DNA of 64,000 nucleotides from Candidatus Berkelbacteria bacterium (GTDB lineage: Bacteria; Patescibacteriota; UBA1384; DTJR01), in the NCBI GenBank assembly GCA_029865605.1, contig JAOUGE010000004.1, positions 2,562-66,561 of the forward strand, read 5' to 3'. A model generated the notes under the pieces. That model saw nothing but the letters and a program-made list of their open reading frames with translations, was not told where the DNA came from and made no database searches. The number at the start of each line of letters is the position of its first letter. Within the stretch, counting starts at the first letter, position 1. Below, one piece after another: positions 710 to 56,509 of this stretch. A program made the position numbers and the translations under genes.

Positions 710-1531
710 TTGGAGGCTAATGACATGATACTGGAAGGCAGAGAGCTTGCCTCAAGAATAATAAAAGAATTGGGGGCAGCGCCGCCGCCGCGCAATTGTC
801 TTGCGGTTATTCAGGTCGGAAACGATCCCGTGAGTACTCTTTATGTGGCCAAAAAAAAAGAGATCGCCGATGAGTTGGGCGTTTGCCTTAAACTAGCCAA
901 GCTGCCGGCGACGGCTACTGAAGACAATATCTTGGCTGAAGTTCTCAGCTTGAACGATGATAGCTCGGTTGGCGGTATCCTTGTCCAGATGCCCTTACCC
1001 CAAGCCGCTGATCGAAACAAAATCGTCTCTGCAATTGAGCCAAAAAAAGATCCAGATGGCTTTCATTGCCTTTTGAAAAGTGAGAAATTCCACTGCATTC
1101 CCCCGACGGTTCTGGCAATAGACGAGATCTTGGATTTCTATCAGATAGAAAAGCGCAACAAGAATATCTTGGTTGTTGGGGGCGGTTTTTTGGTCGGGCG
1201 ACCTCTGTTCGAGTTCTGGAAGGAAAAAGGTTTCCAAGTTAGTATATTAGAGAAAGACGCAAGTAATTACTCGGAGGAGCTTAAAAGAGCCCAAATAGCG
1301 GTGGTTTCGACTGGCGGCGGCGGTAGGTTTAGTTTTCAAGACTTTTCAGCTGGCGCTGTGGTGATAGACGCTTCAACTGTCTCTGACGACGGTAAGTTAA
1401 GGGGGGATGTCGAAGTCGAGGGTTGGCCCGATGATCGCCATCTTTGTCCCGTTCCCGGCGGGATTGGGCCGGTGACAGTGGCGATGTTGTTTAAGAATTT
1501 TTACGATCTTCAAAATACGCTCACCACTTGA
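710..1531 (+). CDS. folD: bifunctional methylenetetrahydrofolate dehydrogenase/cyclohydrolase
   Basis: Full-length match to FolD conserved blocks (AVIQVGNDPVSTLYV, GGILVQMPLP, KDPDGFH, PVPGGIGPVTVAMLF). Confidence 0.85.
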   Translation: MEANDMILEGRELASRIIKELGAAPPPRNCLAVIQVGNDPVSTLYVAKKKEIADELGVCLKLAKLPATATEDNILAEVLSLNDDSSVGGILVQMPLPQAADRNKIVSAIEPKKDPDGFHCLLKSEKFHCIPPTVLAIDEILDFYQIEKRNKNILVVGGGFLVGRPLFEFWKEKGFQVSILEKDASNYSEELKRAQIAVVSTGGGGRFSFQDFSAGAVVIDASTVSDDGKLRGDVEVEGWPDDRHLCPVPGGIGPVTVAMLFKNFYDLQNTLTT

Positions 1532-1672
1532 CACAAAGACACGCGGTTCTTTTCCCAGCGGAAAAGCCCGCTCTTGAGAGAATTCTCGCGTTCCACCCGC
1601 TCGAAGCGGCTCGCTCGTCCCGACAAAGTGTCGGGACACCGGCTCGCTTCGCCTGCGAATGGTCTTTGTTAC
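1522..1672. repeat. dispersed ~150-nt intergenic repeat, copy 1 (candidate structured RNA / MITE-like)
   Basis: Near-identical to 30226-30384. Contains the GAGAATTCTC palindrome and hairpin GTCCCGACA-aag-TGTCGGGAC (1617-1637). Begins with CTTGACAC overlapping the folD stop codon. Confidence 0.6.
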
Positions 1673-1735
1673 CAAGTGGTTCGCTCGAAAAGATACGCTT
1701 TCCATTTTTCCTGATTTCGTTTAAGATATCTTTGT

Positions 1736-6089: not shown

Positions 6090-6116
6090 TTATTTATTTC
6101 TGGTTCTAAAATGGGT

Positions 6117-6147
6117 CGAGGCCGCCTATGGAAGGCGGCCTCGGAAT
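6117..6147 (+). terminator. GC-rich hairpin downstream of htpX
   Basis: GAGGCCGCC-tatggaa-GGCGGCCTC perfect 9-bp stem immediately after the htpX stop; no U-tract, so it could instead be an RNA structural element. Confidence 0.35.
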
Positions 6148-6348
6148 GGGTTCGTTGACGAGAGGCCCTCTGGCGACGCAATGTGCGGCTCGCGCCATGA
6201 AGTGGAAGCTAACGCGGCCGGGGCTATAGAACGTCTAGCCCGCCCGCCGCGAAACCTCATCATCAACGAACGATAAAATATACCACTTTTCCTTGAAATT
6301 GTCAATACCCTATGACACAATCAGATTAGGCTTGTTATCCTAAATAAT

Positions 6349-8070
6349 ATGATCAACAAAACCTGTCGACAGTGTAAAAAAGAATTCGCAGTCGAGGACG
6401 ACGACCTCTCATTTTACAAAAAAATCTCCCCCACTTTTGCCGGAAAGACCTTTGATATCCCCCCGCCAACCTCGTGTCCGGAGTGTCGTCAGATGCGTCG
6501 GCTTGCCTGGCGTAATGAAAGGTCGATTTATAAACGAAAATGCGATAAAACAGGCAGAGAAATCGTCAGCATTTTTTCTCCTGACAAAAAAGATTACACT
6601 GTTTACGATCAGCAGATCTGGTGGGGTGACACTTGGGACGCTATGGAATATGGACAGGACTTTGATCCCAACCAGCCGTTTTTTAAGCAATTAGGCCTGC
6701 TCAATAAAAAAGTACCTAAGCTCTCTTTAAATAATATAAACACGGTAAATAGCGAGTACGGCAATCACGTGATGGAGATAAAAAACTGCTATATGTCGGT
6801 AGTTACTTATTATGGCAGTGAGGACGTGCATTATTCTTACGGGGCATTCACTTGTAAAAACTCCATTGACTTATTCATCAGCGAGAAGTGTGAAAACAGC
6901 TATCGCCTTATATATTGTGACAACTGTTATAATTGCCGATATTCTCAACGGCTCAACAATTGCACTGATTGTTATTATTCTATTGATCTGACGGCGTGCT
7001 CGAATTGCCTTTTTTGCTCGAACTTAAAGCACAAGGAATACCACATTCACAACAAAAAATATTCTAAAGAAGATTACGAAAAAGAGCTGCAAAAATATGA
7101 TTTTGGTTCTTGGGAAAAATCAAAGCAATATTGGCAGGAGTTTGTTGAGTTAAAAAATAACTCGATCGTTAAGTTCGCTAACAATGTAAATTGCGATAAT
7201 TGTTCGGGCGATGATTTGACAAATTGCAAGGATGTGAAGTATTCCTTCAGCCAGAAGAGATCGGAACATTCAAAATACAGTTTGCGAGGGGTAAATGATA
7301 AATACTGCTATGACTATATGGGTGGGGACATAGAGTGGGGTTATGAGTTTTTGAGCTCGGGCTATGGCAGCTCTATTTTATTTTGCTATTTAGAAGAAAG
7401 GTCGGCAAACTTGGCTTATTGCATAAGCTGCTTTGGCTGCCGAGATTGCTTTGGGTGTGTGGGATTGAAGAATAAACAGTACTGCGTATTTAATAAAGAG
7501 TATTCAAAGGAAAGTTACGAAGCTTTTGTAGCAAAAATTATTGAGAGGATGATGGCGGATAAAGAGTGGGGAGAGTTTTATCCCTATCAAATGTCGCCGT
7601 TTGGTTTTAACGAGACGCTTGGCTATTCTTATTATCCAATCAAAAAAGAGGAAGCACTAAAGCTTGGCGCCAAGTGGCAGGACGATGATTTCGGTATTAA
7701 ATTTGATGGTAAATTCTATGAGCCGGAAGACGATATTGAAGAGTATAACAAGAGCCAAGAGAAGCGGGAAGAACTGTTGAATGGCGTATTGAAGTGCGAA
7801 GTTTCCGGCAAGCCGTTTAAAATAGTTCCGCAGGAACTTGCATTTTATATGGAACAAAAAGTCCCGATTCCGAGGAAACATTATGACATTAGATACAAAG
7901 AAAATTTTGCTCTTCAGAATCCCCGTAAACTCTGGCATCGCCAATGTGTGTGTGAAGAAAAAGGTCACGGTCACGAGGGAAGATGTAAAAACGAATTCGA
8001 GACAACATACGCTTCCGACAGACCGGAAAAGGTGTATTGCGAAAAGTGCTACCAGAAATCTGTTATTTAG
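6349..8070 (+). CDS. cysteine-rich paralog A1 (zinc-ribbon-like termini, tandem CxxC repeat core), function unknown
   Basis: 573 aa. N-terminus CxxC...CPxCR...RRLAWRNER..YKRKC; C-terminus ELAFY..PIPRKHYD...HRQCVCEE.GHGHEGRC..FETTYAxDRPEKVYCEKCYQKSVI; homologous to six other ORFs in the window. Confidence 0.8.
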   Translation: MINKTCRQCKKEFAVEDDDLSFYKKISPTFAGKTFDIPPPTSCPECRQMRRLAWRNERSIYKRKCDKTGREIVSIFSPDKKDYTVYDQQIWWGDTWDAMEYGQDFDPNQPFFKQLGLLNKKVPKLSLNNINTVNSEYGNHVMEIKNCYMSVVTYYGSEDVHYSYGAFTCKNSIDLFISEKCENSYRLIYCDNCYNCRYSQRLNNCTDCYYSIDLTACSNCLFCSNLKHKEYHIHNKKYSKEDYEKELQKYDFGSWEKSKQYWQEFVELKNNSIVKFANNVNCDNCSGDDLTNCKDVKYSFSQKRSEHSKYSLRGVNDKYCYDYMGGDIEWGYEFLSSGYGSSILFCYLEERSANLAYCISCFGCRDCFGCVGLKNKQYCVFNKEYSKESYEAFVAKIIERMMADKEWGEFYPYQMSPFGFNETLGYSYYPIKKEEALKLGAKWQDDDFGIKFDGKFYEPEDDIEEYNKSQEKREELLNGVLKCEVSGKPFKIVPQELAFYMEQKVPIPRKHYDIRYKENFALQNPRKLWHRQCVCEEKGHGHEGRCKNEFETTYASDRPEKVYCEKCYQKSVI

Positions 8071-8111: not shown

Positions 8112-9770
8112 ATGACGAGAAAATGTATCTCATGTAAAAAAAATTTTGAGATTGAGAAAGAAGATTTAGCTTTTTACAAAAAAATTGGCCCTGTTATCAA
8201 TGAGAAAAAACTCGCAATCGATCCTCCTCGGGAATGTCCATCTTGCCGGGAGATCAGAAGGTGGGCTTATAGAAACCAGAGCTCGCTGTACAAGGCAAAA
8301 TCTGCCCTCTCCGGGGAAGAAATGATTTCTCTTTACCCTCCTATTACCGAATATACGGTATACAAAGAAAATGAGTGGTGGACGGACAAGTGGGATCCGC
8401 TTTCATACGGCCAAGAATATGATTTCTCCAGGCCATTTTTTGAACAGTTTTTCGAACTTCAAAAAAAAGTGCCGAGGCGGGCTCTCCAGCAGGACGGTAC
8501 TAACGAGAATTGCGAGTTTACTACCTACGGAACCAGTAATAAAAACTGCTATCTTGCCTTTGCTTGTAGTGTCTGTGAAGATGTCTACTATACTGATTGG
8601 TCTCATCAACTCAAAGATTGTATAGATTGTATTAAATGCGTGGGTGGTGAATTGCTATATGAGTGTGTAGATAGCAACAACTGCTATAATAGCATGCATT
8701 TAAAAGACTCTAACGCATGCCGGGAATCCTTTTTGCTTGAAGATTGCCAAAGTTGTGCCAATTGCATTTGCTGTAAAAATTTAGTCGAAAAAGAATATTA
8801 TTATTTCAACAAAAAAATCTCAAAACCCGAATATCAAAAAATAGTAGAAGAAGCAAAAAAAGACGATTTCAAGAAACTAGAAGAAAAGTTTAATAAATGG
8901 AAAAAGAGTCAGCCAGCTCGCTTTGCAAGGATTATCGGATCGGAAGAATGCACGGGTGATAATATTTTTAAGTGCAGAAACTGTAAGAAATGTTTTGACC
9001 TTTTGCTTGGAGCGGAGAATTGCAGGTATTGTTATTTCTGCGGAGGGGGTGCTAAGGAAATGTACGATTGCAATATGGCCGGCCAAGGGAGTGAGCTAAT
9101 TTATGAGATGCAAGCTACGGTTGGATCTTATAATTGCGCTTTTATTAACTTTTGTCGAATATCAAAAAATTGTTACTATTCTGATTCGCTTGGATCGTGT
9201 GATAGTTGTTTCGGTTGTATCGGCCTTAATCACAAAAACCATTGTATATTAAACGAGCAATACACAGAGGAAGAATACAAAAGATTACTGCCCAAAATTA
9301 TCGAGCATATGAGAAAGACCGGAGAGTGGGGGCGGGGTTTTCCGATTAAAAACTCGCCGTTTCCGTTTAACGATACTTCGGCATATGAACTTCATCCAAT
9401 CTCAAAGGAAGAGGCTTTAACGAAGGGCTACCTTTGGAATGACAATAAAGTTCTACCGCAAGACGAGAGCAAGATGACTAAAGACGTTTATCAATGCGTT
9501 TCCTGTCTAAGGAAATTCAAAATGATTCCGCACGAGTTATTTTTCTATGAAAGGATGAGCGTAAATAAACCCAAGCAATGCTTTTTCTGTCGAAGAAAAG
9601 AAAGACTAAAAAACAGAATCAGCTACTCGCTTTTTGAAAGAGAGTGCGTGTGCGAGGAGTCGGGTCACGGTCACGAGGGAAGGTGTAAGGTAGAATTTGA
9701 GACAACCTACGCACCGGATAGACCGGAGAAGGTATATTGTGAAGATTGTTATCAAAAATCTATTATATAA
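8112..9770 (+). CDS. cysteine-rich paralog A2
   Basis: 552 aa; shares the N-terminal CxxC/FYKKI module and the C-terminal CVCEESGHGHEGRC...YAPDRPEKVYCEDCYQKS module with the family. Confidence 0.8.
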   Translation: MTRKCISCKKNFEIEKEDLAFYKKIGPVINEKKLAIDPPRECPSCREIRRWAYRNQSSLYKAKSALSGEEMISLYPPITEYTVYKENEWWTDKWDPLSYGQEYDFSRPFFEQFFELQKKVPRRALQQDGTNENCEFTTYGTSNKNCYLAFACSVCEDVYYTDWSHQLKDCIDCIKCVGGELLYECVDSNNCYNSMHLKDSNACRESFLLEDCQSCANCICCKNLVEKEYYYFNKKISKPEYQKIVEEAKKDDFKKLEEKFNKWKKSQPARFARIIGSEECTGDNIFKCRNCKKCFDLLLGAENCRYCYFCGGGAKEMYDCNMAGQGSELIYEMQATVGSYNCAFINFCRISKNCYYSDSLGSCDSCFGCIGLNHKNHCILNEQYTEEEYKRLLPKIIEHMRKTGEWGRGFPIKNSPFPFNDTSAYELHPISKEEALTKGYLWNDNKVLPQDESKMTKDVYQCVSCLRKFKMIPHELFFYERMSVNKPKQCFFCRRKERLKNRISYSLFERECVCEESGHGHEGRCKVEFETTYAPDRPEKVYCEDCYQKSII

Positions 9771-11902: not shown

Positions 11903-12208
11903 ATGCTGAAAAAAGAAGACGTTGAACACGTCGCTAAGCTTTCGCGTTTGGAATTATCTGATGCGGAAATTGAAAAATTTACGCCGCAACTGTCTTCTGT
12001 TTTTGAAATGTTTGAAAAATTGGACGCCGAAGATTTGAAAAACGTTGAAGAAACATCGCAGGTGACAGGACTCGAAAATGTCACCCGCGAAGACGAGATA
12101 AAGTGTCTTGACGATTTAACTTGCTGCACGACCGAAGAACTGCTAAAAAATATTCCCATTAAAGAAAGCAGTTCAATTTTGGTTCCTAAAGTAATTGAGG
12201 ATAAATGA
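11903..12208 (+). CDS. gatC: Asp/Glu-tRNA amidotransferase subunit C
   Basis: 101 aa; GatC pattern (VEHVAKLSRLELSDAEIEKF...LDAEDLKNVEETSQVTG). Confidence 0.8.
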   Translation: MLKKEDVEHVAKLSRLELSDAEIEKFTPQLSSVFEMFEKLDAEDLKNVEETSQVTGLENVTREDEIKCLDDLTCCTTEELLKNIPIKESSSILVPKVIEDK

Positions 12209-13683
12209 GCAATCTATGTAATTTAACAATTGCCGAAGCTTCAAAGCAGCTTGCCGAGGGCAAGATAACTTCAGCGGATCTGACGAAGTCGGTTTTAGAA
12301 AGGATTGAACAAGTCGAGCCGAAAGTCGAGGCCTATTTGAAAGTGCTTGAGGATTCGGCACTCAAAGAAGCGGAAGCGTCGGATAAAAGACGCCAAGCTG
12401 GAAAGCCGCTTAGCAAATTGGATGGTGTTCCAATCGCGGTTAAAGATTTGTTTTGCACTAAAGACGTTGAAACAACCGCCGCCTCTAATATTCTGAAGGG
12501 GTTTGTACCGTGCTATGAAGCAACAGCGGTTAAAAAATTAAAAGATGCGGGGGTGGTTTTAGTCGGCAAATTAAATCAAGACGCTTTTGCCCACGGGTCA
12601 TCAACCGAAAATTCGGATTTCAAAGTGACCAAGAATCCATGGGATTTGGAGCGGGTGCCGGGGGGATCAAGCGGCGGCTCTGCCGCCGCCGTTGCCGCCG
12701 ATGAGTGCCTCGGCGCGCTTGGCACGGATACCGGCGGCTCGATTCGCCAGCCGGCATCTTTGTGCGGAGTCGTCGGACTCAAGCCAACCTACGGCCGTGT
12801 ATCGAGATACGGCGTAATTGCGATGGCATCTTCACTGGATGTGATTGGCCCGCTAGCCAAGACTACAGAAGACGCAGCTTTGATTATGGAAGTGATTGCC
12901 GGTCGCGATTCTCTTGACGGGACGACTTTAGGTGCACCGGTGCCGGAGTATTCGAAAGAACTTGAGAAGGATATGAAAGGTCTTAAGGTTGGCGTTCCTA
13001 AGGAATATTTTGCTGAGGGGATGGATGAGGACGTAAAAAAGGTTATCGAAAAGTCGGTTGAAAAATTAAAATCTCTTGGCGCGGAAATCGCTGAAATCTC
13101 ACTCCCCCACACCGATATGGCTCTGGCGACTTATTATATTCTTCAGCCTGCTGAAGTGAGTTCGAATCTTTCTCGCTACGATGGAATAAAGTACGGGTTT
13201 TCGACTCTGCGGGAAGAAAAAGAACAACCGCTTGAAAAAGTATATTTTGAATCCCGAGGACAGGGTTTTGGCGCGGAGGCAAAAAGAAGAGTTATGCTCG
13301 GGACCCATGTTTTATCGGCTGGCTACTACGATGCATATTACAAGAAAGCAATGAAGCTCCGCACTCTTGTAAAAAAGGATTTTGACGAGGCATTTAAAAA
13401 AGTTGATGTTATAGTTACGCCCGTCTCGCCAACTCCGGCGTTTAAAATTGGCGAAAAATCTGATAATCCAATCCAGATGTATCTTTCAGACATTTACACA
13501 GTCCCGATCAATCCCGCGGGAGTTCCGGCAATTTCAACACCAGCTGGATTTGTCGAACGTGATGGTAAAAAACTTCCGGTCGGGATACAGATTATTGGGC
13601 CTATGCTCGGCGAGCCAGTTATTCTAAATGTCTCTTATCAGCTTGAAAAAGCACTTTCTTTAAAAGATAGGCCGAAATTATGA
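12205..13683 (+). CDS. gatA: Asp/Glu-tRNA amidotransferase subunit A
   Basis: Amidase signature GGSSGGSAAAVA and catalytic Ser-cisSer-Lys context; start overlaps the gatC stop. Confidence 0.9.
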   Translation: MSNLCNLTIAEASKQLAEGKITSADLTKSVLERIEQVEPKVEAYLKVLEDSALKEAEASDKRRQAGKPLSKLDGVPIAVKDLFCTKDVETTAASNILKGFVPCYEATAVKKLKDAGVVLVGKLNQDAFAHGSSTENSDFKVTKNPWDLERVPGGSSGGSAAAVAADECLGALGTDTGGSIRQPASLCGVVGLKPTYGRVSRYGVIAMASSLDVIGPLAKTTEDAALIMEVIAGRDSLDGTTLGAPVPEYSKELEKDMKGLKVGVPKEYFAEGMDEDVKKVIEKSVEKLKSLGAEIAEISLPHTDMALATYYILQPAEVSSNLSRYDGIKYGFSTLREEKEQPLEKVYFESRGQGFGAEAKRRVMLGTHVLSAGYYDAYYKKAMKLRTLVKKDFDEAFKKVDVIVTPVSPTPAFKIGEKSDNPIQMYLSDIYTVPINPAGVPAISTPAGFVERDGKKLPVGIQIIGPMLGEPVILNVSYQLEKALSLKDRPKL

Positions 13684-14126
13684 GCAAATATCAACACAAA
13701 AAGAAAAGAAATGTGGATGGAATCGGCTCCTCATTTTTTGGCCTTTTGGAAAGAGGAGTCGAGCGGCTTTTTGAGAGGGTATTTAGGCCCAAAGCGACTT
13801 TTGCAGTTTTTTCTCGGGGCGAGTTGACCCAGCTCTGGCAGGGGATGGAAGCAATGGAACCTCGGCTGGCAATAATTGAGGCTGACAAACTTGTTGATAC
13901 AGTTTTGAAGAAAGCCGGCGTGGAGGGGGAATCATTTGCCGACCGCTTGCGCAAAGTTGAAAAGCTGGTTGACAGGAATATTTATAATGGAATGTGGGAG
14001 GCGCATAAAGCTCGCAACGAGCTTGTCCACGAAATCAATCATTCGGTAGATGTGTCAAAATCCCACGTCCTACTTGCAAAAATGAAGGATTTTTTGACCG
14101 CATTGGGGGCATTTAAAAATGACTGA
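13680..14126 (+). CDS. hypothetical protein inserted between gatA and gatB
   Basis: 148-aa ORF whose start and stop overlap gatA and gatB (translational coupling); no recognisable family. Confidence 0.45.
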   Translation: MSKYQHKKKRNVDGIGSSFFGLLERGVERLFERVFRPKATFAVFSRGELTQLWQGMEAMEPRLAIIEADKLVDTVLKKAGVEGESFADRLRKVEKLVDRNIYNGMWEAHKARNELVHEINHSVDVSKSHVLLAKMKDFLTALGAFKND

Positions 14127-15537
14127 AGAATTTAGGACGGTTATAGGACTTGAAATCCACGTTCAGCTTAACACAAGAGCCAAGATGTTTTGCGGTTGCG
14201 ATAATAACGCAGAAGGCAAAGAGCCGAATACGGTTGTTTGCCCGGTTTGTATGGGTATGCCGGGAACCTTGCCGGTTGCAAGTCGCGAGGCGATCGAAAA
14301 GACAATAAAATTGGGGCTAGCACTTGGATGCGAGATTCCCAAGATTTCAAAATTTGACCGCAAGCATTATTTTTATCCCGACCTACCTAAAGGTTATCAG
14401 ATTAGCCAATACGATCAGCCGTTTTGTAAGGGCGGACAAATAGAGCTCGAGTCAGGGACTGTCAAATTAAACAGAGTTCATTTAGAGGAGGATGCCGGAA
14501 AGTTAGTTCATCCGAAAGGGAGCAAATATTCGATCGTGGATTTAAATAGAGCCGGCACACCGCTTTTAGAGATTGTCAGCGAGCCGGATATTACCTCGCC
14601 AGCAATGGCCAAGGATTATATGAAAGAACTTCATTTGATTTTACGAAATTTAAGGATTTCAGATGCGGATATGGAAAAGGGTCAGATGCGCTGTGACGCA
14701 AATATATCAGTCCAGTTAAAAGGGGAAAGGAGAAAGGGTAAAGTAGCTAGCTCACCGATTGTGGAGATAAAAAATTTAAATTCATTTCGTTTCGTGGAAA
14801 AAGCGCTGGCACACGAAGAAAAAAAATTGCAAGAAGAATTCGAGAAGTGGCCGGAAAAAAAGACGAAACTGACTCACGGTTTTGACTCAAATCGCGGCAC
14901 GACTTATCCGATGCGCGAAAAAGAGGAAGCCAAAGACTATCGTTATTTTCCTGAGCCGGATGTTCCGCCGTTTGATTTGACTAGGTTTCCGATTGAAAAA
15001 TGGAAGAAGGAACTGCCCAAACTGCCAAGTCACCACCGTGCTCGGTTGTCTGAACTTGGCTTAACTAAAGAAGAAGCTAACATCATCGCAAAGGATGACA
15101 CGATAAAGGATGTGATCGAAAATGTAGCGGAGAAAAATAAGGCGATTATTGGGAAACTGTTGATCAATAACGTAGAGGCCAGGAAACTTTCGATTGAGGC
15201 TCTTAATCAGATTGCTGATACGATAAGAGATGGCAGCCCGTCAAATTGGGTACGAGATATGATCAGGAGGTCTGTGAAGAGCGGGAAGCTGCCTCTGGAA
15301 ATTGTTAAAGAAACAAAGGGCTTGGCACCGAGCTCGGAAGAAATCTCAGAAAAAACGAAGGAATTTACGAAATTTCTTATTTCTGAAAATCCTGATGTGG
15401 TCCAGAAACATAAGGCAGGAAAAGCCGGAGCCTTGGAGTTTTTAATCGGGCAGGGTATGAAAATGACGAAAGGCACTGTGAACCCGAAAGAGTTAAGGGA
15501 AGAACTAGTTAAGCAGTTGGAAGAGGAGAAAAGATGA
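14119..15537 (+). CDS. gatB: Asp/Glu-tRNA amidotransferase subunit B
   Basis: GLEIHVQLNTRAKMFCGC...CPVCMGMPGTLPV N-terminal GatB signature; 472 aa. Confidence 0.9.
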   Translation: MTEEFRTVIGLEIHVQLNTRAKMFCGCDNNAEGKEPNTVVCPVCMGMPGTLPVASREAIEKTIKLGLALGCEIPKISKFDRKHYFYPDLPKGYQISQYDQPFCKGGQIELESGTVKLNRVHLEEDAGKLVHPKGSKYSIVDLNRAGTPLLEIVSEPDITSPAMAKDYMKELHLILRNLRISDADMEKGQMRCDANISVQLKGERRKGKVASSPIVEIKNLNSFRFVEKALAHEEKKLQEEFEKWPEKKTKLTHGFDSNRGTTYPMREKEEAKDYRYFPEPDVPPFDLTRFPIEKWKKELPKLPSHHRARLSELGLTKEEANIIAKDDTIKDVIENVAEKNKAIIGKLLINNVEARKLSIEALNQIADTIRDGSPSNWVRDMIRRSVKSGKLPLEIVKETKGLAPSSEEISEKTKEFTKFLISENPDVVQKHKAGKAGALEFLIGQGMKMTKGTVNPKELREELVKQLEEEKR

Positions 15538-15837: not shown

Positions 15838-17562
15838 ATGCCACAAACAAAACAATGTAAACAGTGTAGCCAGGAATTTCAGATAACAGATGATGATTTA
15901 GAATTTTTGAAGAAAGTAAGCCCGATTTTACAGGGGCAAACTATTTTAATCTCTCCGCCGACTCTCTGTCCGACTTGCAGAGAGATCAAGAGATTATGCT
16001 GGCGGAATGAGCGAAGTTTGTACAAAAGAAAATCGGATAAGTCAGGCAGGGAAATTGTTTCTATTTATTCGCCTGATAAAACCGATTATCAGGTGTATGA
16101 TATTTCCGAATATCAAAGCGATGAATTTGACCCGATGAGTTTCGGCCAGGAATATGATTTTTCAAAAAGCTTCTTTGCCCAATACGACGAATTGCTTCAT
16201 AAGGTTCCGAGAAAAGCTAGCAACACAACTAGAAATGAAAACAGTGACTACTGTAACCAAACATGGCAAACCAAAGATTCATATCTTTGTTTTAATGTTG
16301 GTTATGCTGAGAACTGCCTTTACTGCACAGAAGCTTTCCATGTTAAAAATTGTGTAGATTGTTTTGATATAAGAGATTGCGAGTATTGCTATAGTTGTTT
16401 TGATTGCGTTAACTGTAACAAATCGAAATATATTGAACACTGTAGAGATTGTTTTGAGTGCTATTTTATTTATGACTGTTTGGGTTGCAAAAATGTTGTT
16501 CTTTCCAGCGGCCTTCATAACAAACAGTATGTCTTTGAAAATAAACAGTTAACAAAAGAGGAATACGAAGAGAGGGTAAAAAACATCGATTTTTCCAGTA
16601 GAGCTGCAATGGATGAGCTTAAAAAGCGATTCGAAGAATTGAAAAAGAGTGCCATTCATCGCGAGAACAATAATATTTCTTCAGAAAATTGCACGGGAGA
16701 TTATTTGATCGAATGTAAGGATTGCACAGATTGTTATAATGCCCTGAAAAGTGAGGGGTGCAAAAGGGTTGCCGGAATTGATGATGCTTCGCGCGATTGT
16801 CGAGATATGAACATTATTACTGAGGCGGAGCTTTGCTATGAAGGCACAAGTGTGACCGGACACAAAAACCTTTTAAGCGTTTTTGTGGTCTATGGCAGTG
16901 ATAATATATATTGTAATTTTTGCGAAAATTGCAACAACTGCTTCGGGTGTGTCGGACTAAACCACAAACAATACTGCATCTTGAATAAACAGTATGCGAA
17001 AGATGAATATGAGAAACTGCTAGCAAAAACAATTGAGAAGATGAAAGAGGACAATGAGTGGGGAGAATTTTTCCCGATGAGCATTTCTCCGTTTGGTTAT
17101 AACGAGGCATTAGTAAATGCCTATCATCCAAAATCAAAAGATGAGGCAAAAAAACTTGGTGCAAAATGGCAAGACAATGATTATTCTCTTCAATATCAGG
17201 GTGAATTTTATGCGCCAAAGGATTCTATAAAGGAATATGTTGCCTCGAATGACGAAGTAAAAAATTTGCTCAATGGAGTCTTGGAATGCGAGACAAGCGG
17301 AAAAGCATTTAAGGTCATGCCGCAGGAAATCGCTTTTTACATGGAGCATAATATTCCTGTTCCATCCAAGCACTCTGAGATTCGATACGAAGAATTATTT
17401 AAAAAAAGAAATCCCCGTAAACTCCACCACCGCCAGTGTATGTGTGAAGAATCTGGCCACGATCATGGCGGACGTTGTCCTGTTGAATTTGAAACCACCT
17501 ACGCACCCGACCGGCCGGAGAAGATTTATTGTGAAAACTGTTATCAGAAATCAGTTATATGA
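15838..17562 (+). CDS. cysteine-rich paralog B1
   Basis: 574 aa; the same conserved termini as A1 (CKQCSQEF..DDDLEF.KKVSP...CPTCREIKRLCWRNERSLYKRK; ...HRQCMCEESGHDHGGRC..FETTYAPDRPEKIYCENCYQKSVI). Confidence 0.8.
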   Translation: MPQTKQCKQCSQEFQITDDDLEFLKKVSPILQGQTILISPPTLCPTCREIKRLCWRNERSLYKRKSDKSGREIVSIYSPDKTDYQVYDISEYQSDEFDPMSFGQEYDFSKSFFAQYDELLHKVPRKASNTTRNENSDYCNQTWQTKDSYLCFNVGYAENCLYCTEAFHVKNCVDCFDIRDCEYCYSCFDCVNCNKSKYIEHCRDCFECYFIYDCLGCKNVVLSSGLHNKQYVFENKQLTKEEYEERVKNIDFSSRAAMDELKKRFEELKKSAIHRENNNISSENCTGDYLIECKDCTDCYNALKSEGCKRVAGIDDASRDCRDMNIITEAELCYEGTSVTGHKNLLSVFVVYGSDNIYCNFCENCNNCFGCVGLNHKQYCILNKQYAKDEYEKLLAKTIEKMKEDNEWGEFFPMSISPFGYNEALVNAYHPKSKDEAKKLGAKWQDNDYSLQYQGEFYAPKDSIKEYVASNDEVKNLLNGVLECETSGKAFKVMPQEIAFYMEHNIPVPSKHSEIRYEELFKKRNPRKLHHRQCMCEESGHDHGGRCPVEFETTYAPDRPEKIYCENCYQKSVI

Positions 17563-19280
17563 GCCAAAATAAAACGTGCAAGCAGTGTAATGAACAATTT
17601 ATCGTTGAAGACGAAGATCTAGAGTTCTACAAAAAAATCTTTCCGACTTTTGCCGGTAAAACTTATCATATCCCGCCGCCGACGCTGTGTCCGGATTGCA
17701 GGATGATAAGACGGCTTCTTTGGCGCAACGAGAGAGCCCTTTATAAACGGAAATGTGAACGTACGGGTAAAGAAATTGTATCGATCTATTCTCCCGACAA
17801 AAAGCATTTTAAGGTGTGGAATCAAGACGAGTGGTATAAGGACAATTGGGACCCGCTCGATTTTGGGAGGACATATAACTCTTCCGAGTCGTTCTTTAAA
17901 CAGTTTTATGAATTGCAGCAAAATGTCCCGCGTCCCGCAATGAGTTTTTTTAATTGCGAAGATTGCTATTATTGCAATTTCGTCTGGAATGCTAAAAAAT
18001 GTTATCTCTGTTGGGCAACGATGGATCTTGAGAATTGTATGTATTCGACGAGATCATTTGAATCGGTCGGATGTGTTGACTGTATTGATACGAGAAATAG
18101 CCAGCATTGCTACAGTTGTCTTGACTGCGAGAATTGCTATAAAGCTAGGTACTCAGAACGATGTAAGGATTGCTCAGAGATTTCTTTTTGTTTCGACTGT
18201 CGAGGATGTAAAAATATCTATCTTTGCACGAATCTTAGGAACAAACAATATTATATTCGGAACAAGCAGTACAGCCGCGAAGAGTATTTCCGTGTTTTAG
18301 AAAAAAATGCGGGGAGCATATCGCGGGGGAAGCAAGATACTGCCGAGTTGAAAGAGATGGAGGAAAAGTCAATTCATCCTGAAAATTACAACCTGAAGTG
18401 TGAGGACTGCTCGGGGGATTATCTGACCGAATGTAAAAACTGTTCTGAGTGTTTTTTGGTCGCCAAATCTGAAAGCAGCAAGTATATTTTGAGCGGAAAC
18501 CAGAATATAAATCATAGCTACGATATATACCAAAATGTAGATAGCGAATTTAGCTACGAAGGAATCGGCGGCTCGGGATATAAAAATATTTTTTGTGCTT
18601 GGATGATGCGCGGTAATGATAATTATTACTGTAATTTTTGTGAAAGCTGCTCAAATTGTTTTGGTTGTTTTGGGTTGAAACAAAAACAACACTGCATTTT
18701 AAACAAACAGTATTCCAAAGAGGAATACGAGAAGATTGTGTCTGAAATAATAGAGAAAATGAGCAAAGACAAGGAATGGGGCGAATATTTTCCCTCTTGG
18801 TCAGCGCCATTTTGTTACAACGAGACTATGGCAAATACCTGGTTTCCAAAGTCCCGTGACGAAGCGGTGAAGCTTGACGCCAAATGGCAAGACAATGATT
18901 ATATCCCGAATTATTCGGGAGATTATTACTCGCCTAAAGACAAAATTGAAGAATACATTGGCAACAAAGAAGAACAGGAAAAAATGGTGGAAGGGGTACT
19001 GAAGTGCGAGGTTTCGGGAAAACCATTTAAGATTATGCCTCAAGAGCTTAATTTTTATATTGAGAACAAAATTGCGATACCGACTAAGCACTATGAAGTT
19101 AGGTACTTGGAGAGATTTAATCTTAGGAACCCCCGCAAGCTTTACCGTCGCCAGTGTATGTGTGAAGAACCGGGACATAATCATGAGGGAAGATGCAAAA
19201 TTGAGTTTGAGGCTACCTACGCACCCGATCGGCCGGAGAAGATTTATTGTGAAAACTGTTATCAAAAGACGGTAATATGA
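17559..19280 (+). CDS. cysteine-rich paralog B2
   Basis: 573 aa; ATGA overlap with the B1 stop; conserved family termini. Confidence 0.8.
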   Translation: MSQNKTCKQCNEQFIVEDEDLEFYKKIFPTFAGKTYHIPPPTLCPDCRMIRRLLWRNERALYKRKCERTGKEIVSIYSPDKKHFKVWNQDEWYKDNWDPLDFGRTYNSSESFFKQFYELQQNVPRPAMSFFNCEDCYYCNFVWNAKKCYLCWATMDLENCMYSTRSFESVGCVDCIDTRNSQHCYSCLDCENCYKARYSERCKDCSEISFCFDCRGCKNIYLCTNLRNKQYYIRNKQYSREEYFRVLEKNAGSISRGKQDTAELKEMEEKSIHPENYNLKCEDCSGDYLTECKNCSECFLVAKSESSKYILSGNQNINHSYDIYQNVDSEFSYEGIGGSGYKNIFCAWMMRGNDNYYCNFCESCSNCFGCFGLKQKQHCILNKQYSKEEYEKIVSEIIEKMSKDKEWGEYFPSWSAPFCYNETMANTWFPKSRDEAVKLDAKWQDNDYIPNYSGDYYSPKDKIEEYIGNKEEQEKMVEGVLKCEVSGKPFKIMPQELNFYIENKIAIPTKHYEVRYLERFNLRNPRKLYRRQCMCEEPGHNHEGRCKIEFEATYAPDRPEKIYCENCYQKTVI

Positions 19281-20986
19281 GTATCAATCAAACCTGCAAA
19301 CAGTGTCAAAAGGAATTCTCGGTCGACAATGAAGAATTAGCCTTGCTAGATAAACTTTCTCCAACTGTTGGCGGACAAAAGCTAGATATTCCTGTACCAA
19401 CACACTGTTTTAGCTGTAGGGCAAAAAGACGTTTAGGCTGGCGAAATGAAAGGTCGCTTTACAATCGCAAATGTGACAAATCCGGTAAAGAGATTGTTTC
19501 AGTGTATCCGCCCGATTCGGAGTATAAAGTCTTTGAACAAAAGGAGTGGTGGGGCGATGGATGGGATGCCAAGGATTATGGGCAGGACTTCGATTTTACA
19601 AAATCCTTTTTTGAGCAGTTTGCAGAACTAAATAAAAAAGTCCCTAAATGTGCACTCCTAAATAAAAATCCGGATAATAGTGATTACCTAAATCGCGCCG
19701 AAGATAATAAAGACAGTTATATGTCTTTTGACCTTGGATGGAACGAAAAAATTTTTTATTCAAGGACTATTTATAATTGCAACAATCTCATTGATTGTAC
19801 TTTTTGTAGAGATCATTGCTCTTTTTCTTACGAATGCCTGAATTGTAATTCTGTTGTTAGCTCTAGTTATTGCATTGATTCTTCCAAACTATCTGAATGC
19901 CATTTTTGTTTTAATTTGCATGGTTGCCAAAACTGTATATTTTGCGCCAACCTGCATAACAAACAATATTGTATTGAAAATAAACAGTACTCCAAAGAAG
20001 AATTCGAGCAAAAGCTGAAAGAATATGACTTTGGGTCTTATCAAAAAATTCAGGAATATAAAACTAGATTCGCCAATATTGTAAAAAGTTGTGTTCATAA
20101 ATATGCGAGTAATTTAAAATGTGAGAATTGTAGTGGGGATTATCTTGAAAATTGTAAGAATATTAAAATCAGTTTTGGGGTGAAGAATTCTGAAAATGGA
20201 AGATATATGTTCGATTCCGAAAGAGGTAAAGATACAATGGATGATTGCTTTTCTGGCGGTGAGGGAGCAGAACTAAATTATGAAGTGCTTGGAGCTGGCT
20301 GGCCATACAACACGAAGTTCAATAATTCGTCGTGGCACTGCTCAAATGTCATTTATATAAACTTTTGCCAACACTGCAAGGATTGCTTTGGATGTTCGAA
20401 CATGAAAAGAGCACAGTACTGCATCCTGAATAAGCAATATTCCAAAGAAGAATACGAGAAATTAATACCCAAGATCGTGGAACATATGAAAAAAACAGGC
20501 GAATGGGGCGAGTTTTTTCCACTTCAGATGTCTGAGTTTAGTTATAACGAATCTGTTGCAAACGAGTACTTTCCTCAATCCAAAGAAGAAGTTTTACAAA
20601 ACGGTTGGAAGTGGAAAGATAAAGTCGACAACCTGGTACCGTCATCCGGTTATGTAATTGCGGACAATATTAATGAGATAACAAATGAAATTTTAGAAAA
20701 GGTATTAGTTTGTGAAGTCACCAAAAGACCTTATAAAATTCAGTCCCGGGAGCTCGCATTTTATATCGAACAAAATATCCCAATTCCTCACAAGCATCCC
20801 GATCAACGTCACCACGAGCGGCTTTCATTGCGCAACGCACTAAAGCTCCATCACCGCCAATGTATGTGCGAGGAATCTGACCATGACCATTCCGGGCGCT
20901 GTCCCGTTGAGTTTGAAACTACTTATGCTCCAGATCGGCCGGAAAAAGTGTATTGTGAAAACTGTTATCAGAAGACGGTTATATAA
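19277..20986 (+). CDS. cysteine-rich paralog B3
   Basis: 569 aa; ATGA overlap with the B2 stop; conserved family termini. Confidence 0.8.
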   Translation: MSINQTCKQCQKEFSVDNEELALLDKLSPTVGGQKLDIPVPTHCFSCRAKRRLGWRNERSLYNRKCDKSGKEIVSVYPPDSEYKVFEQKEWWGDGWDAKDYGQDFDFTKSFFEQFAELNKKVPKCALLNKNPDNSDYLNRAEDNKDSYMSFDLGWNEKIFYSRTIYNCNNLIDCTFCRDHCSFSYECLNCNSVVSSSYCIDSSKLSECHFCFNLHGCQNCIFCANLHNKQYCIENKQYSKEEFEQKLKEYDFGSYQKIQEYKTRFANIVKSCVHKYASNLKCENCSGDYLENCKNIKISFGVKNSENGRYMFDSERGKDTMDDCFSGGEGAELNYEVLGAGWPYNTKFNNSSWHCSNVIYINFCQHCKDCFGCSNMKRAQYCILNKQYSKEEYEKLIPKIVEHMKKTGEWGEFFPLQMSEFSYNESVANEYFPQSKEEVLQNGWKWKDKVDNLVPSSGYVIADNINEITNEILEKVLVCEVTKRPYKIQSRELAFYIEQNIPIPHKHPDQRHHERLSLRNALKLHHRQCMCEESDHDHSGRCPVEFETTYAPDRPEKVYCENCYQKTVI

Positions 20987-30207: not shown

Positions 30208-30225
30208 GGGTCGCTCACCGCTTGA

Positions 30226-30384
30226 CACGAAGATACGCTTGGATTATTAGCGGGTTCCACCCCGCGAAGCCCAGCAGAAAAAGCCCGTTCTTGAGAGAAT
30301 TCTCGCGTTCCACCTGCTCGAAGCGGCTTGCTCGTCCCGCCACAGGCGGAACACCGGCTCGCTTCGCCTGCGAATGATCTTCTT
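30226..30384. repeat. dispersed ~150-nt intergenic repeat, copy 2
   Basis: About 90% identical to 1522-1672 over the core. Hairpin GTCCCGCC-aca-GGCGGAAC shows a compensatory change relative to copy 1. Preceded by CTTGACAC-17-TATTAG, a promoter-like arrangement. Confidence 0.6.
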
Positions 30385-30481
30385 GAGCTGTGCGGTTTGC
30401 TTAAGTTCTAATTATTTTTGTCTCCTTTAGCAACTTTGATTTTTCGGCGGGAATCAGCTAAATTAAAAGAGAGGTGAAGAT

Positions 30482-43371: not shown

Positions 43372-44835
43372 TTCTACTAAGAGTTTGATCCTGGCTCAGG
43401 ATGAACGCTAGCGGCGTACCTAAAACATGCAAGTCGCGCGCTTGTAAAAGCGCGGCAAACGGGTGAGTAACGCGTGGGAATCTGCCCCGAACTGGGAAAT
43501 ACCCCGCCGAAAGGTGGGTTAATGTCCCATAGTCTCCGCCTTTGGCGGAGTAAAGCTCCGGCGGTTCGGGAGGAGCCTGCGTCCTATCAGCTTGTTGGTA
43601 GGGTAAAAGCCTACCAAGGCAATGACGGGTAGGGGGTGTGAGAGCATGGCCCCCCACAACGGCACTGAGACACGGGCCGTACACCTACGGGTGGCAGCAG
43701 TTAGGAATAGTACGCAATGGGCGAAAGCCTGACGTCGTGACGCCGCGTGGAGGAAGAAGGCCTCCGGGTTGTAAACTCCTTTTCTGCAGGAAGATTATGA
43801 CTGTACTGCAGGAATAAGCATCGGCTAATTACGTGCCAGAAGCCTCGGTAATACGTGGGATGCGAGCGTTATCCGGAATTATTGGGCGTAAAGAGCGCGT
43901 AGGCGGCCAAGAAAGTCCGACCTTAAAACTAGCGGCTTAACCGCTAAGATGGGTCGGAGACTTTTTGGCTTGAGCATTTGCAGGGGCAAGCGGAATCTGC
44001 GGTGTAGGGGTAAAATCCATTGATATCGCAGAGAACACCAATGGCGAAGGCAGCTTGCTAGGCATTGTCTGACGCTGAGGCGCGAAAGCGTGGGTAGCGA
44101 ACGGGATTAGATACCCCGGTAGTCCACGCCGTAAACTATGCGAACTAGGTATTGGGATAATCGACCGTCCTGGTACCGAAGCTAACGCGTTAAGTTCGCC
44201 GCCTGGGGAGTACGAGCGCAAGCTTAAAACTCAAAGGAATTGGCGGGGGCTCGCACAAGCGGTGGAACATGGGGTTTAATTCGACAGTAAGCGGAGAACC
44301 TCACCAAGGTTTGACATCTACGGAATCCCCGAGAAACCGGGGAGTGCCCGCAAGGGAGCCGTAAGACAGGTGCTGCACGGTCGTCGTCAGCTCGTGGCTT
44401 GAGTTGTTCCGTTAAGTCGGGAAACGAGCGCAACCCCTATCGTCTGTTAAATTTCTCAGGCGAGACTGCCTCGGCAACGGGGAGGAAGGTGGGGATGACG
44501 TCAGATCAGCGTGGCCTTTATACCTTGGGCAACACCCGTGTTACAATGGCCGTTACAGAGGGTCGCAATATCGCGAGATGGAGCTAATCCCCAAAAACGG
44601 TCCAAGTTCGGATTGAAGTCTGCAATTCGACTTCATGAAGCCGGAATCGCTAGTAACCGTGGATCAGCTACGCCACGGTGAATACGTTCTCGAGCCTTGC
44701 ACACACCGCCCGTCAAGGCAGGAAAGCCGGCAATGCCTGAATCCCGCATTTTGCGGGACACGGCAGGGTCGGTGATCAGGCCTAAGTCGTAACAAGGTAT
44801 CCGTAGGGGAATCTGCGGATGGATCACCTCCTTTC
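43372..44835 (+). rRNA. rrs: 16S ribosomal RNA
   Basis: AGAGTTTGATCCTGGCTCAG at 43380; universal blocks GTGCCAGAAGCCTCGGTAATAC, ACGGGCGGTGTGT complement and GTCGTAACAAGGTA; 3' end GGATCACCTCCTTTCT. Confidence 0.95.
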
Positions 44836-50936: not shown

Positions 50937-51380
50937 GTGAGAACCTTGAGTTGGGAGTGCCGAAAGTGCCTGGAGGCAGCGATCAAGGAGAACAGGAAGG
51001 CTAAGAAGCTCAACGGGCGTCAGACTCCCGAAGGGCGGGATGCCTATGAGCGGAAAGCTACCCTGGCGCTGCGTGCTCTCTCCCTTTGCACCTCCTGTAA
51101 GTCTGGAGAGGTGCTTAACATGCGGCCGCACAGGAAAGTGAAAAACGCGATCTCTGTGTTGGCCTGTGAGCCTCTTCGTGCAAGCGGCTTTGAGTGCAGC
51201 TTCCACCTTTGCGCAGATACTCTTCTCGAAGTCATTGAGGAAGAGTACGAAGGTCGCGAGGAAGACAAGCGCGATCTCTACGACCTGGTGAGAAGGGTAA
51301 TGCGTGAGGTGCTCGGTGTGGGTACAGGGCTCAGCGAGCCCAGACGGCAGCTTTATCGCCGTTATATCTTACATCCCTAG
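50937..51380 (+). CDS. hypothetical GC-rich gene (Cys-containing, 147 aa); start may instead be the TTG at 50946
   Basis: RBS GGAAGAGGTGA, own promoter and downstream hairpin terminator (51381-51409); ~60% GC versus ~40% background. Confidence 0.45.
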   Translation: MRTLSWECRKCLEAAIKENRKAKKLNGRQTPEGRDAYERKATLALRALSLCTSCKSGEVLNMRPHRKVKNAISVLACEPLRASGFECSFHLCADTLLEVIEEEYEGREEDKRDLYDLVRRVMREVLGVGTGLSEPRRQLYRRYILHP

Positions 51381-51467
51381 GCCCGCGGTTTCGGAGGAAA
51401 CGCGCGGGCCGGCCCCACTCTCTTTATAAGTTTTTCTCCTTTTGATAAAATATGTTTGTTTTGATGC

Positions 51468-51502
51468 GGGCGATTAGCTCAGCCGGTTAGAGTGCGTCAC
51501 TG
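51468..51502 (+). pseudogene. tRNA-Ile-like 5' half (acceptor, D-arm and 5' anticodon stem only)
   Basis: GGGCGATTAGCTCAGCCGGTTAGAGTGCGTCACTG is 31/35 identical to the 5' half of the downstream tRNA-Ile. It diverges exactly at anticodon position 34/35, and no cognate 3' acceptor strand lies within 110 nt. Confidence 0.5.
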
Positions 51503-51593
51503 CGCTTTGCGGGTGGAACGCAAAGCTGATGCGGTATGATGCGCCGTGGGAGTGGAACCCGCGGCTACACCTTGATAATTATGGTCTTTTGAG

Positions 51594-51670
51594 GGGCGTA
51601 TAGCTCAGCTGGTTAGAGCGCGTCACTGATAATGACGAGGTCCATGGTTCGAGTCCATGTACGCCCACCA
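51594..51670 (+). tRNA. tRNA-Ile (anticodon GAT)
   Basis: Clean cloverleaf: acceptor GGGCGTA/TACGCCC, anticodon stem CGTCA/TGACG with loop CTGATAA, T-loop TTCGAGT, encoded CCA. Confidence 0.9.
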
Positions 51671-51738
51671 AAAGACCATAAAATAATAATTCGGAGGTTC
51701 AGCCGATATTCATTGGAAAAATAATTGTCGGCGAGGTT

Positions 51739-54790: not shown

Positions 54791-56509
54791 ATGGCTATTA
54801 ATAAAACCTGCAAACAGTGTAAAAAAGGATTCGTGGTTTTGGATGATGATTTGGTCTATTTGGACAGAATTTCGCCAACCTTCGCGGGTAAAAAGTTCTC
54901 TGTTCCGGCACCATCTCTTTGTACGGACTGTCGCATGCAGAGGCGCGTAGCTTGGAGAAACGAAAGAAATCTTTATAAGAGAAAGTGCGATCTTTGTCAA
55001 GAACAGATAGTTGCTTTATATGAACAAGATTCGCCATTCGCAGTTTATTGCCAAAAATGCTTTTGGTCGGATAAGTGGAACCCACTAGAATTTGCTAAAG
55101 ATTATGATCCTTCAAGGTCTTTTATCGAACAGATTAAAGAAATACAAAAAAAAGCTCCTCGCCTAGCCCTCCTTAATACTTTTTCGGAAAATTCGGAGTT
55201 TACTAATCATTCCTCAAAAAATAAGGATTGCTATTTAGTTTTTGCTTCGTTTGATAATGAGCGCGTCATGTACTGCCGAAAAACTCGTAACTCCAAAGAT
55301 ATCTTGGATTGCACGACCTGTTTTTACGGCTCAGAGCTTTGTTACGAATGTTTTTTGATTGAGAATTGTTATTCCTTGAAATATTCAGTCAACTGCAAGA
55401 ACTGCTCAAATTCCAATTTTCTTTTTGATTGTCTGGACTGTAAGGATTGTTACATGTGTTACGGGCTTCGTAATAAACAGTATTATTTTGAAAATAAGCA
55501 ATTAAGCGAAGAGGAATATAAAAGAAGGATACCTAACTTAGGATCTCGCAAAATTCGAGATGCCGAAAGAAAAAGATTCATAGAATTTTCGAAAGATGCT
55601 GTACGCAAATATGCGAGATTTACAAACTCCGAGAATTCCACTGGTGATGATCTTATTAATTGTTCGAGATGTGTTAATTGTTATGATGTTGAAAAAGCTG
55701 AAGATTGCAAGAATTTTGAGCATGGCGAAGTCCTTAATTGGTGCGTTGATTGTTATGGTGCCGGTAACCCCGGGGAGTATCTTTACGAAGTGCACGGTAT
55801 CTTAGATGGTCATAATTGTGCTTTTACGCACGCTAGCTATCATTCGTCCCGTGTCTACTATTGTGATAATTGCCAAAACTGTCAGGATATTTTTGGCTGT
55901 GTCAGTTTAAAAAAATCTCAATATGCAATTTTAAATAAGCAATATTCGCGTGATGAATACGAAAAGAAAATTGCCGAAATAATTGAAAAAATGACCCAAG
56001 CTGGTGAGTGGGGAGAATTTTTCCCAATCGGTATGAGCCCATTTGCCTATAATGAAACCTTGGCTTCTGAATATTTTCCTCTTAAAAAAGAGGGGGTTGA
56101 GGCAATTGGCGCTAAATGGAGAGATATCACCCATGAAAAAATTAATATAGAAACAGTCATCCCGCATGATGATATATCTGTCTACATCGATTCAAAAGAG
56201 GAGGTAGAAAAATTATTAGCCTCTGCTATAAAATGTTCGGTAACCGGTATTCCTTTTAGAATCTTGCCGCAGGAAATGGTTTTCTATTTGAAAGAAAAAA
56301 TCCCGGTCCCGGAAATTCATTATGATGCACGTCATGCCGAGAGACAGAAATATGTTAACCCCCGCAAGCTTTGTAAGCGCCAATGCATGTGCGAAGAACA
56401 AGGACACCACCACGAAGGAAGATGTAAAGTAGAATTTGAAACCACATACACACCCGATAGGCCAGAGAAAGTATATTGCGAGAGGTGTTACCAGAAATCA
56501 GTTATTTGA
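54791..56509 (+). CDS. cysteine-rich paralog C1
   Basis: 572 aa; conserved family termini (CKQCKKGF...CTDCRMQRRVAWRNERNLYKRKCD; ...QCMCEEQGHHHEGRC...TPDRPEKVYCERCYQKSVI). Confidence 0.8.
   Translation: MAINKTCKQCKKGFVVLDDDLVYLDRISPTFAGKKFSVPAPSLCTDCRMQRRVAWRNERNLYKRKCDLCQEQIVALYEQDSPFAVYCQKCFWSDKWNPLEFAKDYDPSRSFIEQIKEIQKKAPRLALLNTFSENSEFTNHSSKNKDCYLVFASFDNERVMYCRKTRNSKDILDCTTCFYGSELCYECFLIENCYSLKYSVNCKNCSNSNFLFDCLDCKDCYMCYGLRNKQYYFENKQLSEEEYKRRIPNLGSRKIRDAERKRFIEFSKDAVRKYARFTNSENSTGDDLINCSRCVNCYDVEKAEDCKNFEHGEVLNWCVDCYGAGNPGEYLYEVHGILDGHNCAFTHASYHSSRVYYCDNCQNCQDIFGCVSLKKSQYAILNKQYSRDEYEKKIAEIIEKMTQAGEWGEFFPIGMSPFAYNETLASEYFPLKKEGVEAIGAKWRDITHEKINIETVIPHDDISVYIDSKEEVEKLLASAIKCSVTGIPFRILPQEMVFYLKEKIPVPEIHYDARHAERQKYVNPRKLCKRQCMCEEQGHHHEGRCKVEFETTYTPDRPEKVYCERCYQKSVI

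Follow-up and report, generated by a model that had tools for sequence, protein, structure and literature searches.

Short palindromic repeats dispersed between genes are known from several bacterial groups, including the Correia elements of Neisseria, the enterobacterial repetitive intergenic consensus (ERIC) or intergenic repeat unit (IRU) sequences of enterobacteria, bcr1 of the Bacillus cereus group, and the repetitive extragenic palindromic (REP) sequences and bacterial interspersed mosaic elements (BIMEs) that are mobilised by REP-associated tyrosine transposases (RAYTs). REP, ERIC and Correia elements are known to act as exonuclease barriers or processing sites in mRNA, REP/BIME RNA can shield upstream mRNA from 3' exonucleases, and bcr1 is considered to be mobile and is transcribed as well. 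Here we describe a GC-rich repeat that occurs in two copies, at the ends of folD and tsf, in a 64,000-nt stretch of a Candidatus Berkelbacteria genome (contig JAOUGE010000004.1, part of the 114.6-kb ENA contig ERZ27296335 k141_1780834, whose proteins NCBI lists under Candidatus Berkelbacteria; hereafter the window). With moderate confidence, we regard it as a lineage-restricted, non-autonomous palindromic repeat of the kind of miniature inverted-repeat transposable elements (MITEs), ERIC, Correia and bcr1, carried passively in operon transcripts.

Like this repeat, the Correia and ERIC/IRU elements are non-coding and 100-200 nt long, with terminal inverted repeats that allow the whole element to form one long imperfect hairpin. 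They also occupy short spacers near gene ends, are co-transcribed with their neighbours, vary in presence between strains and have internal deletion variants, comparable to copy 1 below. Unlike them, the element has an interior of multi-branched GC hairpins rather than a simple stem, is far GC-richer than its host genome, and has neither a clear TA-type target duplication nor, so far, a high copy number (2 in ~76 kb); it is not known to resemble them in sequence, and promoter elements were not confirmed in it. The bcr1 repeat, which is ~155 nt long and intergenic, resembles our element in its conserved predicted fold with compensatory changes between copies, but the hosts are unrelated, the two are not known to share any sequence, and neither a defined duplication like the TTTAT of bcr1 nor a copy number as high as that of bcr1 (tens to ~100 per genome) was seen for our element. 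REP/BIME sequences are likewise GC-rich palindromes located after genes within operons; however, REPs are 20-40 nt long, occur in hundreds of copies and flank the RAYT gene, whereas the element here is composite and 170-200 nt long, and the window showed no RAYT-like gene.

Two copies of a GC-rich repeat at the ends of housekeeping genes

The window contains two copies of one element, both on the plus strand:

1518-1689, plus strand: copy 1 of the repeat, 172 nt, GC 0.59, between folD and the S41 peptidase gene, delimited by alignments
30212-30405, plus strand: copy 2 of the repeat, 194 nt, between tsf and frr, partly degenerate

The cores of the two copies were 89.5% identical over 114 nt (1554-1666 versus 30270-30381, blastn), and the 25-mers CTTGAGAGAATTCTCGCGTTCCACC and CACCGGCTCGCTTCGCCTGCGAATG each occurred exactly twice in the window, on the plus strand only (0 expected from 100 shuffles), in agreement with the original prediction, made from the letters of the window, of a two-copy repeat with a shared core. 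The octamer CTTGACAC, which had been proposed as the common start, was indeed found in both copies, at 1527-1534 and 30221-30228. The proposed core thus stood, but the outer limits had to be moved. Aligned with two additional copies that were found outside the window (described below), the similarity begins 9-10 nt further 5', at CGCTCACC, and extends further 3', to GGTTCGCT, and the two ends of every copy pair as a terminal inverted repeat, a feature that the original prediction did not mention. Within these boundaries, the element is 172-210 nt long in the different copies, with a GC content of 0.59-0.61, against 0.44 for the window. A covariance model (R1) was built from the four copies, which represent three independent loci and one ortholog; it scored copy 1 at 189.5 bits (E 1.5e-51) and copy 2 at 229.9 bits.

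Each window copy is set in a run of genes on the same strand, with housekeeping genes on the plus strand to either side. Copies of the element occupy short intergenic spacers and touch or overlap the 3' end of the upstream gene. Copy 2 begins 4 nt past the tsf stop codon and ends 76 nt before frr. Copy 1 overlaps folD (ORF 710-1531), so that the ORF takes its final four codons and its stop from the first 14 nt of the copy; this stop, the TGA at 1529-1531, falls within the conserved octamer CTTGACAC, confirming the claim that the repeat supplies the folD stop codon. Homology between this FolD and solved FolD structures stops at residue 259-262 of 268. The overlap affects only a non-conserved tail and the stop, and resembles a tolerated insertion.

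Further copies and their distribution

One of the two additional copies was the sole match in the JGI metagenome collection (exact-pattern scan), in contig Ga0224495_10000282 (L001), where the element has xthA on one side and a divergent response-regulator gene on the other and takes up most of the divergent promoter region. The other, from a close strain (L005, Logan assembly SRR22388041, Frr 98% identical), occupies the orthologous tsf-frr site, with differences. Copies at unrelated loci are 88-90% identical to each other, and their flanks (folD/S41 peptidase, tsf/frr, response regulator/xthA) share nothing.

Beyond these, exact-pattern scans with two core patterns returned no match in 185,579 GTDB species genomes or in viral contigs, and blastn ('distant') found no match to the element in phages and plasmids. 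With nhmmer and covariance model R1, no further copy, whole or degenerate, was detected in ~185 kb of sequence. The somewhat more distant relatives L006 and L007 (Frr 89% identical) have an unrelated, AT-rich tsf-frr spacer without the element. In the Berkelbacteria relatives L010, L011, L013 and L014 (Frr 74-77% identical), pyrH, encoding UMP kinase, lies between tsf and frr, again without the element. A Logan contig from another sample (L009) begins exactly within the invariant core of copy 1, at ATTCTCGCG, as is expected of a multi-copy repeat that branches the assembly graph; this break suggests that the genome contains more copies. We found nothing relevant in the literature on MITEs of Candidate Phyla Radiation (CPR) bacteria or on non-coding RNAs (ncRNAs) of Berkelbacteria.

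The tsf-frr region varies in other ways among these genomes. The pyrH gene is absent from this position in the window genome (29764-31039) and in L005, L006 and L007. In L010, the 372-nt tsf-pyrH spacer (8813-9183) contains a GC-rich, apparently structured stretch that ends in a hairpin and a T run (GTCCGTCTGATCAGCGGATTTTTTT); this stretch is not related to the repeat, and no Rfam family matches it.

Conserved complementarity of the repeat

All of the copies can fold as a long imperfect palindrome closed by the terminal inverted repeats, with three to five GC-rich hairpins in the interior. The parts of the fold are as follows:

1523-1540, plus strand: 5' arm of the closing stem in copy 1, which holds TTGACA and the folD stop TGA
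1662-1680, plus strand: 3' arm of the closing stem in copy 1, which pairs with 1523-1540
1617-1637, plus strand: apical hairpin of copy 1, GTCCCGACA AAG TGTCGGGAC, a perfect 9-bp inverted repeat
30334-30352, plus strand: apical hairpin of copy 2, GTCCCGCC ACA GGCGGAAC, with one C.A mismatch
30250-30265, plus strand: hairpin P4, GCGGG TTCCAC CCCGC, present in copy 2, L005 and L001 and deleted in copy 1

An inverted-repeat search resolved the terminal arms of copy 1 into ACCACTTG/CAAGTGGT and ACAAAGAC/GTCTTTGT, each of 8 bp and 100% complementary, and the arm consensus among the copies is ACCACTTG...CAAGTGGT and C(A/G)AAGAC...GTCTT(T/C)G. These inverted repeats are imperfect, yet their arms persist throughout the four copies, in partly degenerate form in copy 2 and L005, and L001, the best-preserved copy, has an extra outer arm, TTAAGCGA/TCGCTTAA, besides the inner ones. 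The apex differs in sequence in each copy, with the hairpin retained.

Over 57 pairs and four sequences, canonical pairs filled 98.6% of the aligned pair cells, compared with 33-50% when the partners were slid by 1-3 columns. Two-sided changes were found at five of the 57 pairs, of which three belong to the closing stem and one each to hairpin P4 and the apical hairpin. The observed pairing values were reached by 0-10 of 500 shuffles, in a set of only four sequences whose minus strand folds equivalently. The conservation of complementarity is real, but is based on three independent loci.

The original prediction had taken paired substitutions in the central hairpin as an argument for a conserved RNA structure. 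One of these, A-U to C-G, is a true compensatory change; the C.A mismatch listed above is an additional feature of copy 2. The dispersed repeat with conserved complementarity was upheld, but not the step from covariation to structure at the RNA level. Four sequences from three independent loci are too few for a formal covariation test, and the covariation is not proof of an RNA, because a DNA element could show the same in its terminal inverted repeats: symmetric changes in the arms are expected equally of an RNA stem and of such repeats. The consensus fold energy was -70.6 kcal/mol for the minus strand versus -60.2 kcal/mol for the plus strand, and single-copy folds were likewise more stable on the minus strand. 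One-sided stem changes gave a G.U pair five times on the plus strand and twice on the minus strand, a split that leaves the strand undecided.

Divergence between orthologous copies

We compared copy 2 with its ortholog in L005. The element was 94.2% identical, with 11 of 190 aligned positions different and 8 further indel positions; the values for its neighbours were 97.3% for tsf, 98.2% for frr and 98.8% for the adjacent 81-nt spacer. The orthologous copy changes at a rate at least that of synonymous sites. Four changes in copy 2 that are derived relative to L005 are stem-weakening transitions. In addition, a 7-nt tandem duplication at the 5' end of the L005 element (1469-1482, CGCTTAC CGCTTAC), relative to copy 2, indicates slippage in the terminal arm.

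The folding z-scores ranged from -7.1 for copy 1 (-78.3 kcal/mol) and -5.0 for L001 to -1.15 for L005 and +0.3 for copy 2, whose minus-strand fold had a z-score of -1.6. The fold of copy 2 is no better than that of shuffled sequence, and that of L005 is hardly better. Copy 1 lacks a segment of ~25 nt that makes hairpin P4 in the other copies. Judged from these sequences, the element bears no sign of purifying selection, and the pattern resembles decay rather than constraint.

A probable MITE-like palindromic repeat

The dispersal at unrelated loci, the presence or absence in relatives, the terminal arms and the foreign GC content together point to a mobile palindromic repeat. The narrow distribution, the missing signs of purifying selection, the tolerated overlap with folD, the assembly break in copy 1 and the lack of the usual marks of a separate RNA gene also speak for this reading. 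As in MITEs, the sequence is short and non-coding, has terminal inverted repeats, and exists in dispersed copies at unrelated loci. It would have spread recently within one narrow Candidatus Berkelbacteria lineage, with copies arising by transposition or recombination, presumably in trans through an enzyme encoded elsewhere, and inserting into short spacers at gene ends. The window copies are most likely transcribed within the mRNAs of their host operons, because they lie in same-strand gene strings and lack both a promoter and a terminator. In such transcripts, the closing stem and the GC-rich hairpins could block 3' exonucleases or serve RNase III-type processing between cistrons, which would be a side effect and not the reason for the element's existence. 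As such, the repeat is a new, lineage-specific and modest addition to a well-known class.

Several observations weigh against this assignment. The copies so far number 2 in ~76 kb of this genome and 4 in total. No transposase, integrase or reverse transcriptase was found among the window genes with Pfam hits that were checked, and neither a trans-acting enzyme nor an autonomous element with matching ends was found among the window genes. There is no alignable empty site, the spacer of the element-free relatives with 89% identical Frr being unrelated to the window flanks. Nor is there a clean target-site duplication: (A/T)TAAG on the 5' side and TTAA(G/A) on the 3' side accompany two of the three independent loci, and the flanking TTAA, seen in copy 2, L005 and L001 and missing at copy 1, is palindromic and may be a part of the inverted repeat. 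A high GC content within an AT-rich genome is, moreover, the classic mark of structured RNA genes. Finally, the excess of plus-strand G.U pairs (5 versus 2) and the orientation of all three independent copies, which is that of the downstream gene, both mildly favour a selected plus-strand RNA.

Alternative explanations

The main alternative is a paralogous family of structured ncRNAs, acting in cis or in trans, whose fold is selected and whose transcript begins upstream and is processed from the operon mRNA; in that case the functional parts would be the closing stem and the hairpins, for example as a protein-binding or processing module. This is possible, if on balance doubtful. It would account for the 57-pair conserved fold with 98.6% canonical cells and five two-sided pairs (slid controls 33-50%), for the very low z-scores of copy 1 and L001, for a GC content of 0.59-0.61 in a 0.44 genome, akin to the rRNA and tRNA genes here, for the co-orientation of all copies with the downstream gene, and for plus-strand G.U pairs in five of seven one-sided changes. 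However, the neighbours (folD, S41 peptidase, tsf, frr, xthA) are functionally unrelated, the element is missing at the orthologous site of the close relatives L006 and L007, and it diverges faster than the adjacent genes and spacer. A whole hairpin is dispensable in copy 1, the fold of copy 2 is at the level of shuffled sequence, and the minus strand folds equally well or better. There is no promoter, terminator or Rfam match, and four sequences are too few for a covariation test. In particular, no Rfam 15 family matched at the gathering threshold or at E<1 (both copies and related loci, with noise only up to E 10); the top scores were noise, namely Srn266 at 16.7 bits (gathering 63) and P35 at 16.3 bits (gathering 70).

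A MITE-like repeat and a selected RNA module are compatible and not mutually exclusive. A further reading, which we consider unlikely, is that the element is a structured RNA module of CPR bacteria, so far undescribed, which moves from operon to operon and serves the cell. Such a module could be a processing or stability signal between cistrons, or the target of a trans-acting antisense RNA. The antisense variant draws on the plus strand upstream of the tRNA-Ile gene (~51496-51567), where two hairpins carry the 7-nt loops GGTGGAA and AGTGGAA, complementary to the two TTCCACC loops of the element; the stems of these hairpins agree with the element's minus strand, at 20 of 23 nt versus L001 838-860, so that a transcript from this region could pair with mRNAs that carry the element. 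This similarity is nonetheless marginal and not significant, with an nhmmer E-value of 0.57, and 5 of 60 Markov-shuffled windows scored as high.

The same region (51465-51593) is a feature in its own right. It opens with a near-copy of the 5' half of tRNA-Ile (51468-51502, GGGCGATTAGCTCAGCCGGTTAGAGTGCGTCACTG), directly upstream of the tRNA-Ile gene (51594-51670), and continues with the two hairpins, whose minus-strand readings, gctttgcgTTCCACCcgcaaagc and gggTTCCACTccc, resemble the two TTCCACC hairpins of the repeat. ARAGORN calls no tRNA at 51465-51593.

A portable promoter or regulatory DNA cassette, in which TTGACA or the 10-bp palindrome GAGAATTCTC would be a protein site for the downstream gene (S41 peptidase, frr or xthA), is quite unlikely. 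This alternative takes in a small RNA (sRNA) started from the promoter-like hexamers of copy 2:

30222-30250, plus strand: promoter-like hexamers of copy 2, TTGACA (30222-30227), a 17-nt spacer and TATTAG (30245-30250), judged to be no conserved promoter

The hexamers are present as originally reported, TTGACA and GAGAATTCTC are invariant in the four copies, each copy lies 46-76 nt 5' of a co-directional start codon, and the L001 element, as noted, fills most of a divergent promoter region. However, none of the four copies passed a sigma-70 promoter scan, and no terminator-like hairpin with a T run was found within any copy. TATTAG lacks the T at position 6 of the -10 hexamer, and the -10-like segment is deleted in copy 1 and variable elsewhere, being TATTCG in L005 and ATTAGT in L001. 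The invariance of TTGACA is explained without a promoter, because the hexamer belongs to the 5' arm of the inverted repeat, where the 3' arm is its pairing partner. In addition, a transcript begun after the copy 2 hexamers would miss the 5' arm of the closing stem, the site of three of the five two-sided pairs, and the downstream genes have no common function. Given the sigma-70 scan, the unconserved -10 and the missing terminator, the suggestion that copy 2 is an independently transcribed sRNA is not supported.

The weakest alternative, a recombination scar or attachment site (an integron attC-like site, an att site of an integrative element, or a template/variable repeat pair of a diversity-generating retroelement (DGR)), is very improbable and largely refuted by the sequences, for although the element is an imperfect palindrome directly after ORFs, like attC, with T-arm-like loops (TTCCACC) in its hairpins, and one relative has a DGR accessory gene (bAvd), its neighbours are core housekeeping genes in conserved order and not cassettes, its ends (CGCTCACC and GGTTCGCT) are unlike the attC core sites RYYYAAC and GTTRRRY, the copies differ chiefly by C/T transitions and indels that are not adenine-specific, ARAGORN makes no tRNA-like call, and the window genes with Pfam hits that were checked include no integrase or reverse transcriptase.

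Other identities were tried and rejected. For a tRNA-derived element, ARAGORN reports genuine tRNAs only, and the TTCCACC loop has C where T-loops have purine 57. For a protein-coding sequence, a 2-nt indel shifts every frame between copies, and six-frame translation gave no protein relative. A terminator was rejected for its missing T run, and a conserved promoter for its missing conserved -10.

Other features of the window

A perfect 12-bp inverted repeat (TATGGTCTTTTG ... CAAAAGACCATA) at 51575-51686 brackets the tRNA-Ile gene and looks like a processing stem. Immediately upstream of the near-copy region lies a 147-aa ORF (50937-51380) with an unusually high GC of ~0.64 and no Pfam match, which may be foreign DNA inserted beside tRNA-Ile. 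The rRNA operon to which this tRNA belongs is dispersed, with 16S (window 43373-44834), tRNA-Ile (51594), tRNA-Ala (58624) and 23S-5S (11958-14977 and 15354-15470 of L003, corresponding to ~64330 onward in window numbering) in canonical order on a single strand but with blocks of protein genes, 6-7 kb each, in between. The genes between these parts include those for a ClpB-like ATPase, an FG-GAP protein, a TraG/VirD4-like protein and lysyl-tRNA synthetase, among others.

A GC-rich island (up to 0.67) at 6095-6290, in the 400-nt spacer after the M48 peptidase gene, forms a strong hairpin (GGGTCGAGGCCGCC TATGGAA GGCGGCCTCGG). The island matches no Rfam family at gathering and may represent a further structured RNA or else a terminator. 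The window also carries a paralogous gene family with 66-70% DNA identity, whose products of 550-575 aa have no Pfam domains. Its matches lie at 7436-8068, 16899-17797, 18617-19515 and 55856-58296, with three genes in tandem at 15838-20986.

Implications

The genomes of CPR bacteria, Berkelbacteria among them, are small and streamlined, and repeats and mobile DNA are usually said to be scarce in them. The presence within core operons (rpsB-tsf-frr and folD) of a GC-rich palindromic repeat that even provides a stop codon shows that streamlined genomes of this kind still carry selfish elements. The repeat also has practical effects, since it breaks assemblies, changes gene ends and can be taken for an sRNA gene in GC-based screens for ncRNAs. 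If a role of its RNA in processing or stabilising transcripts is true, the element would offer a way to approach operon expression in organisms beyond the reach of culture.

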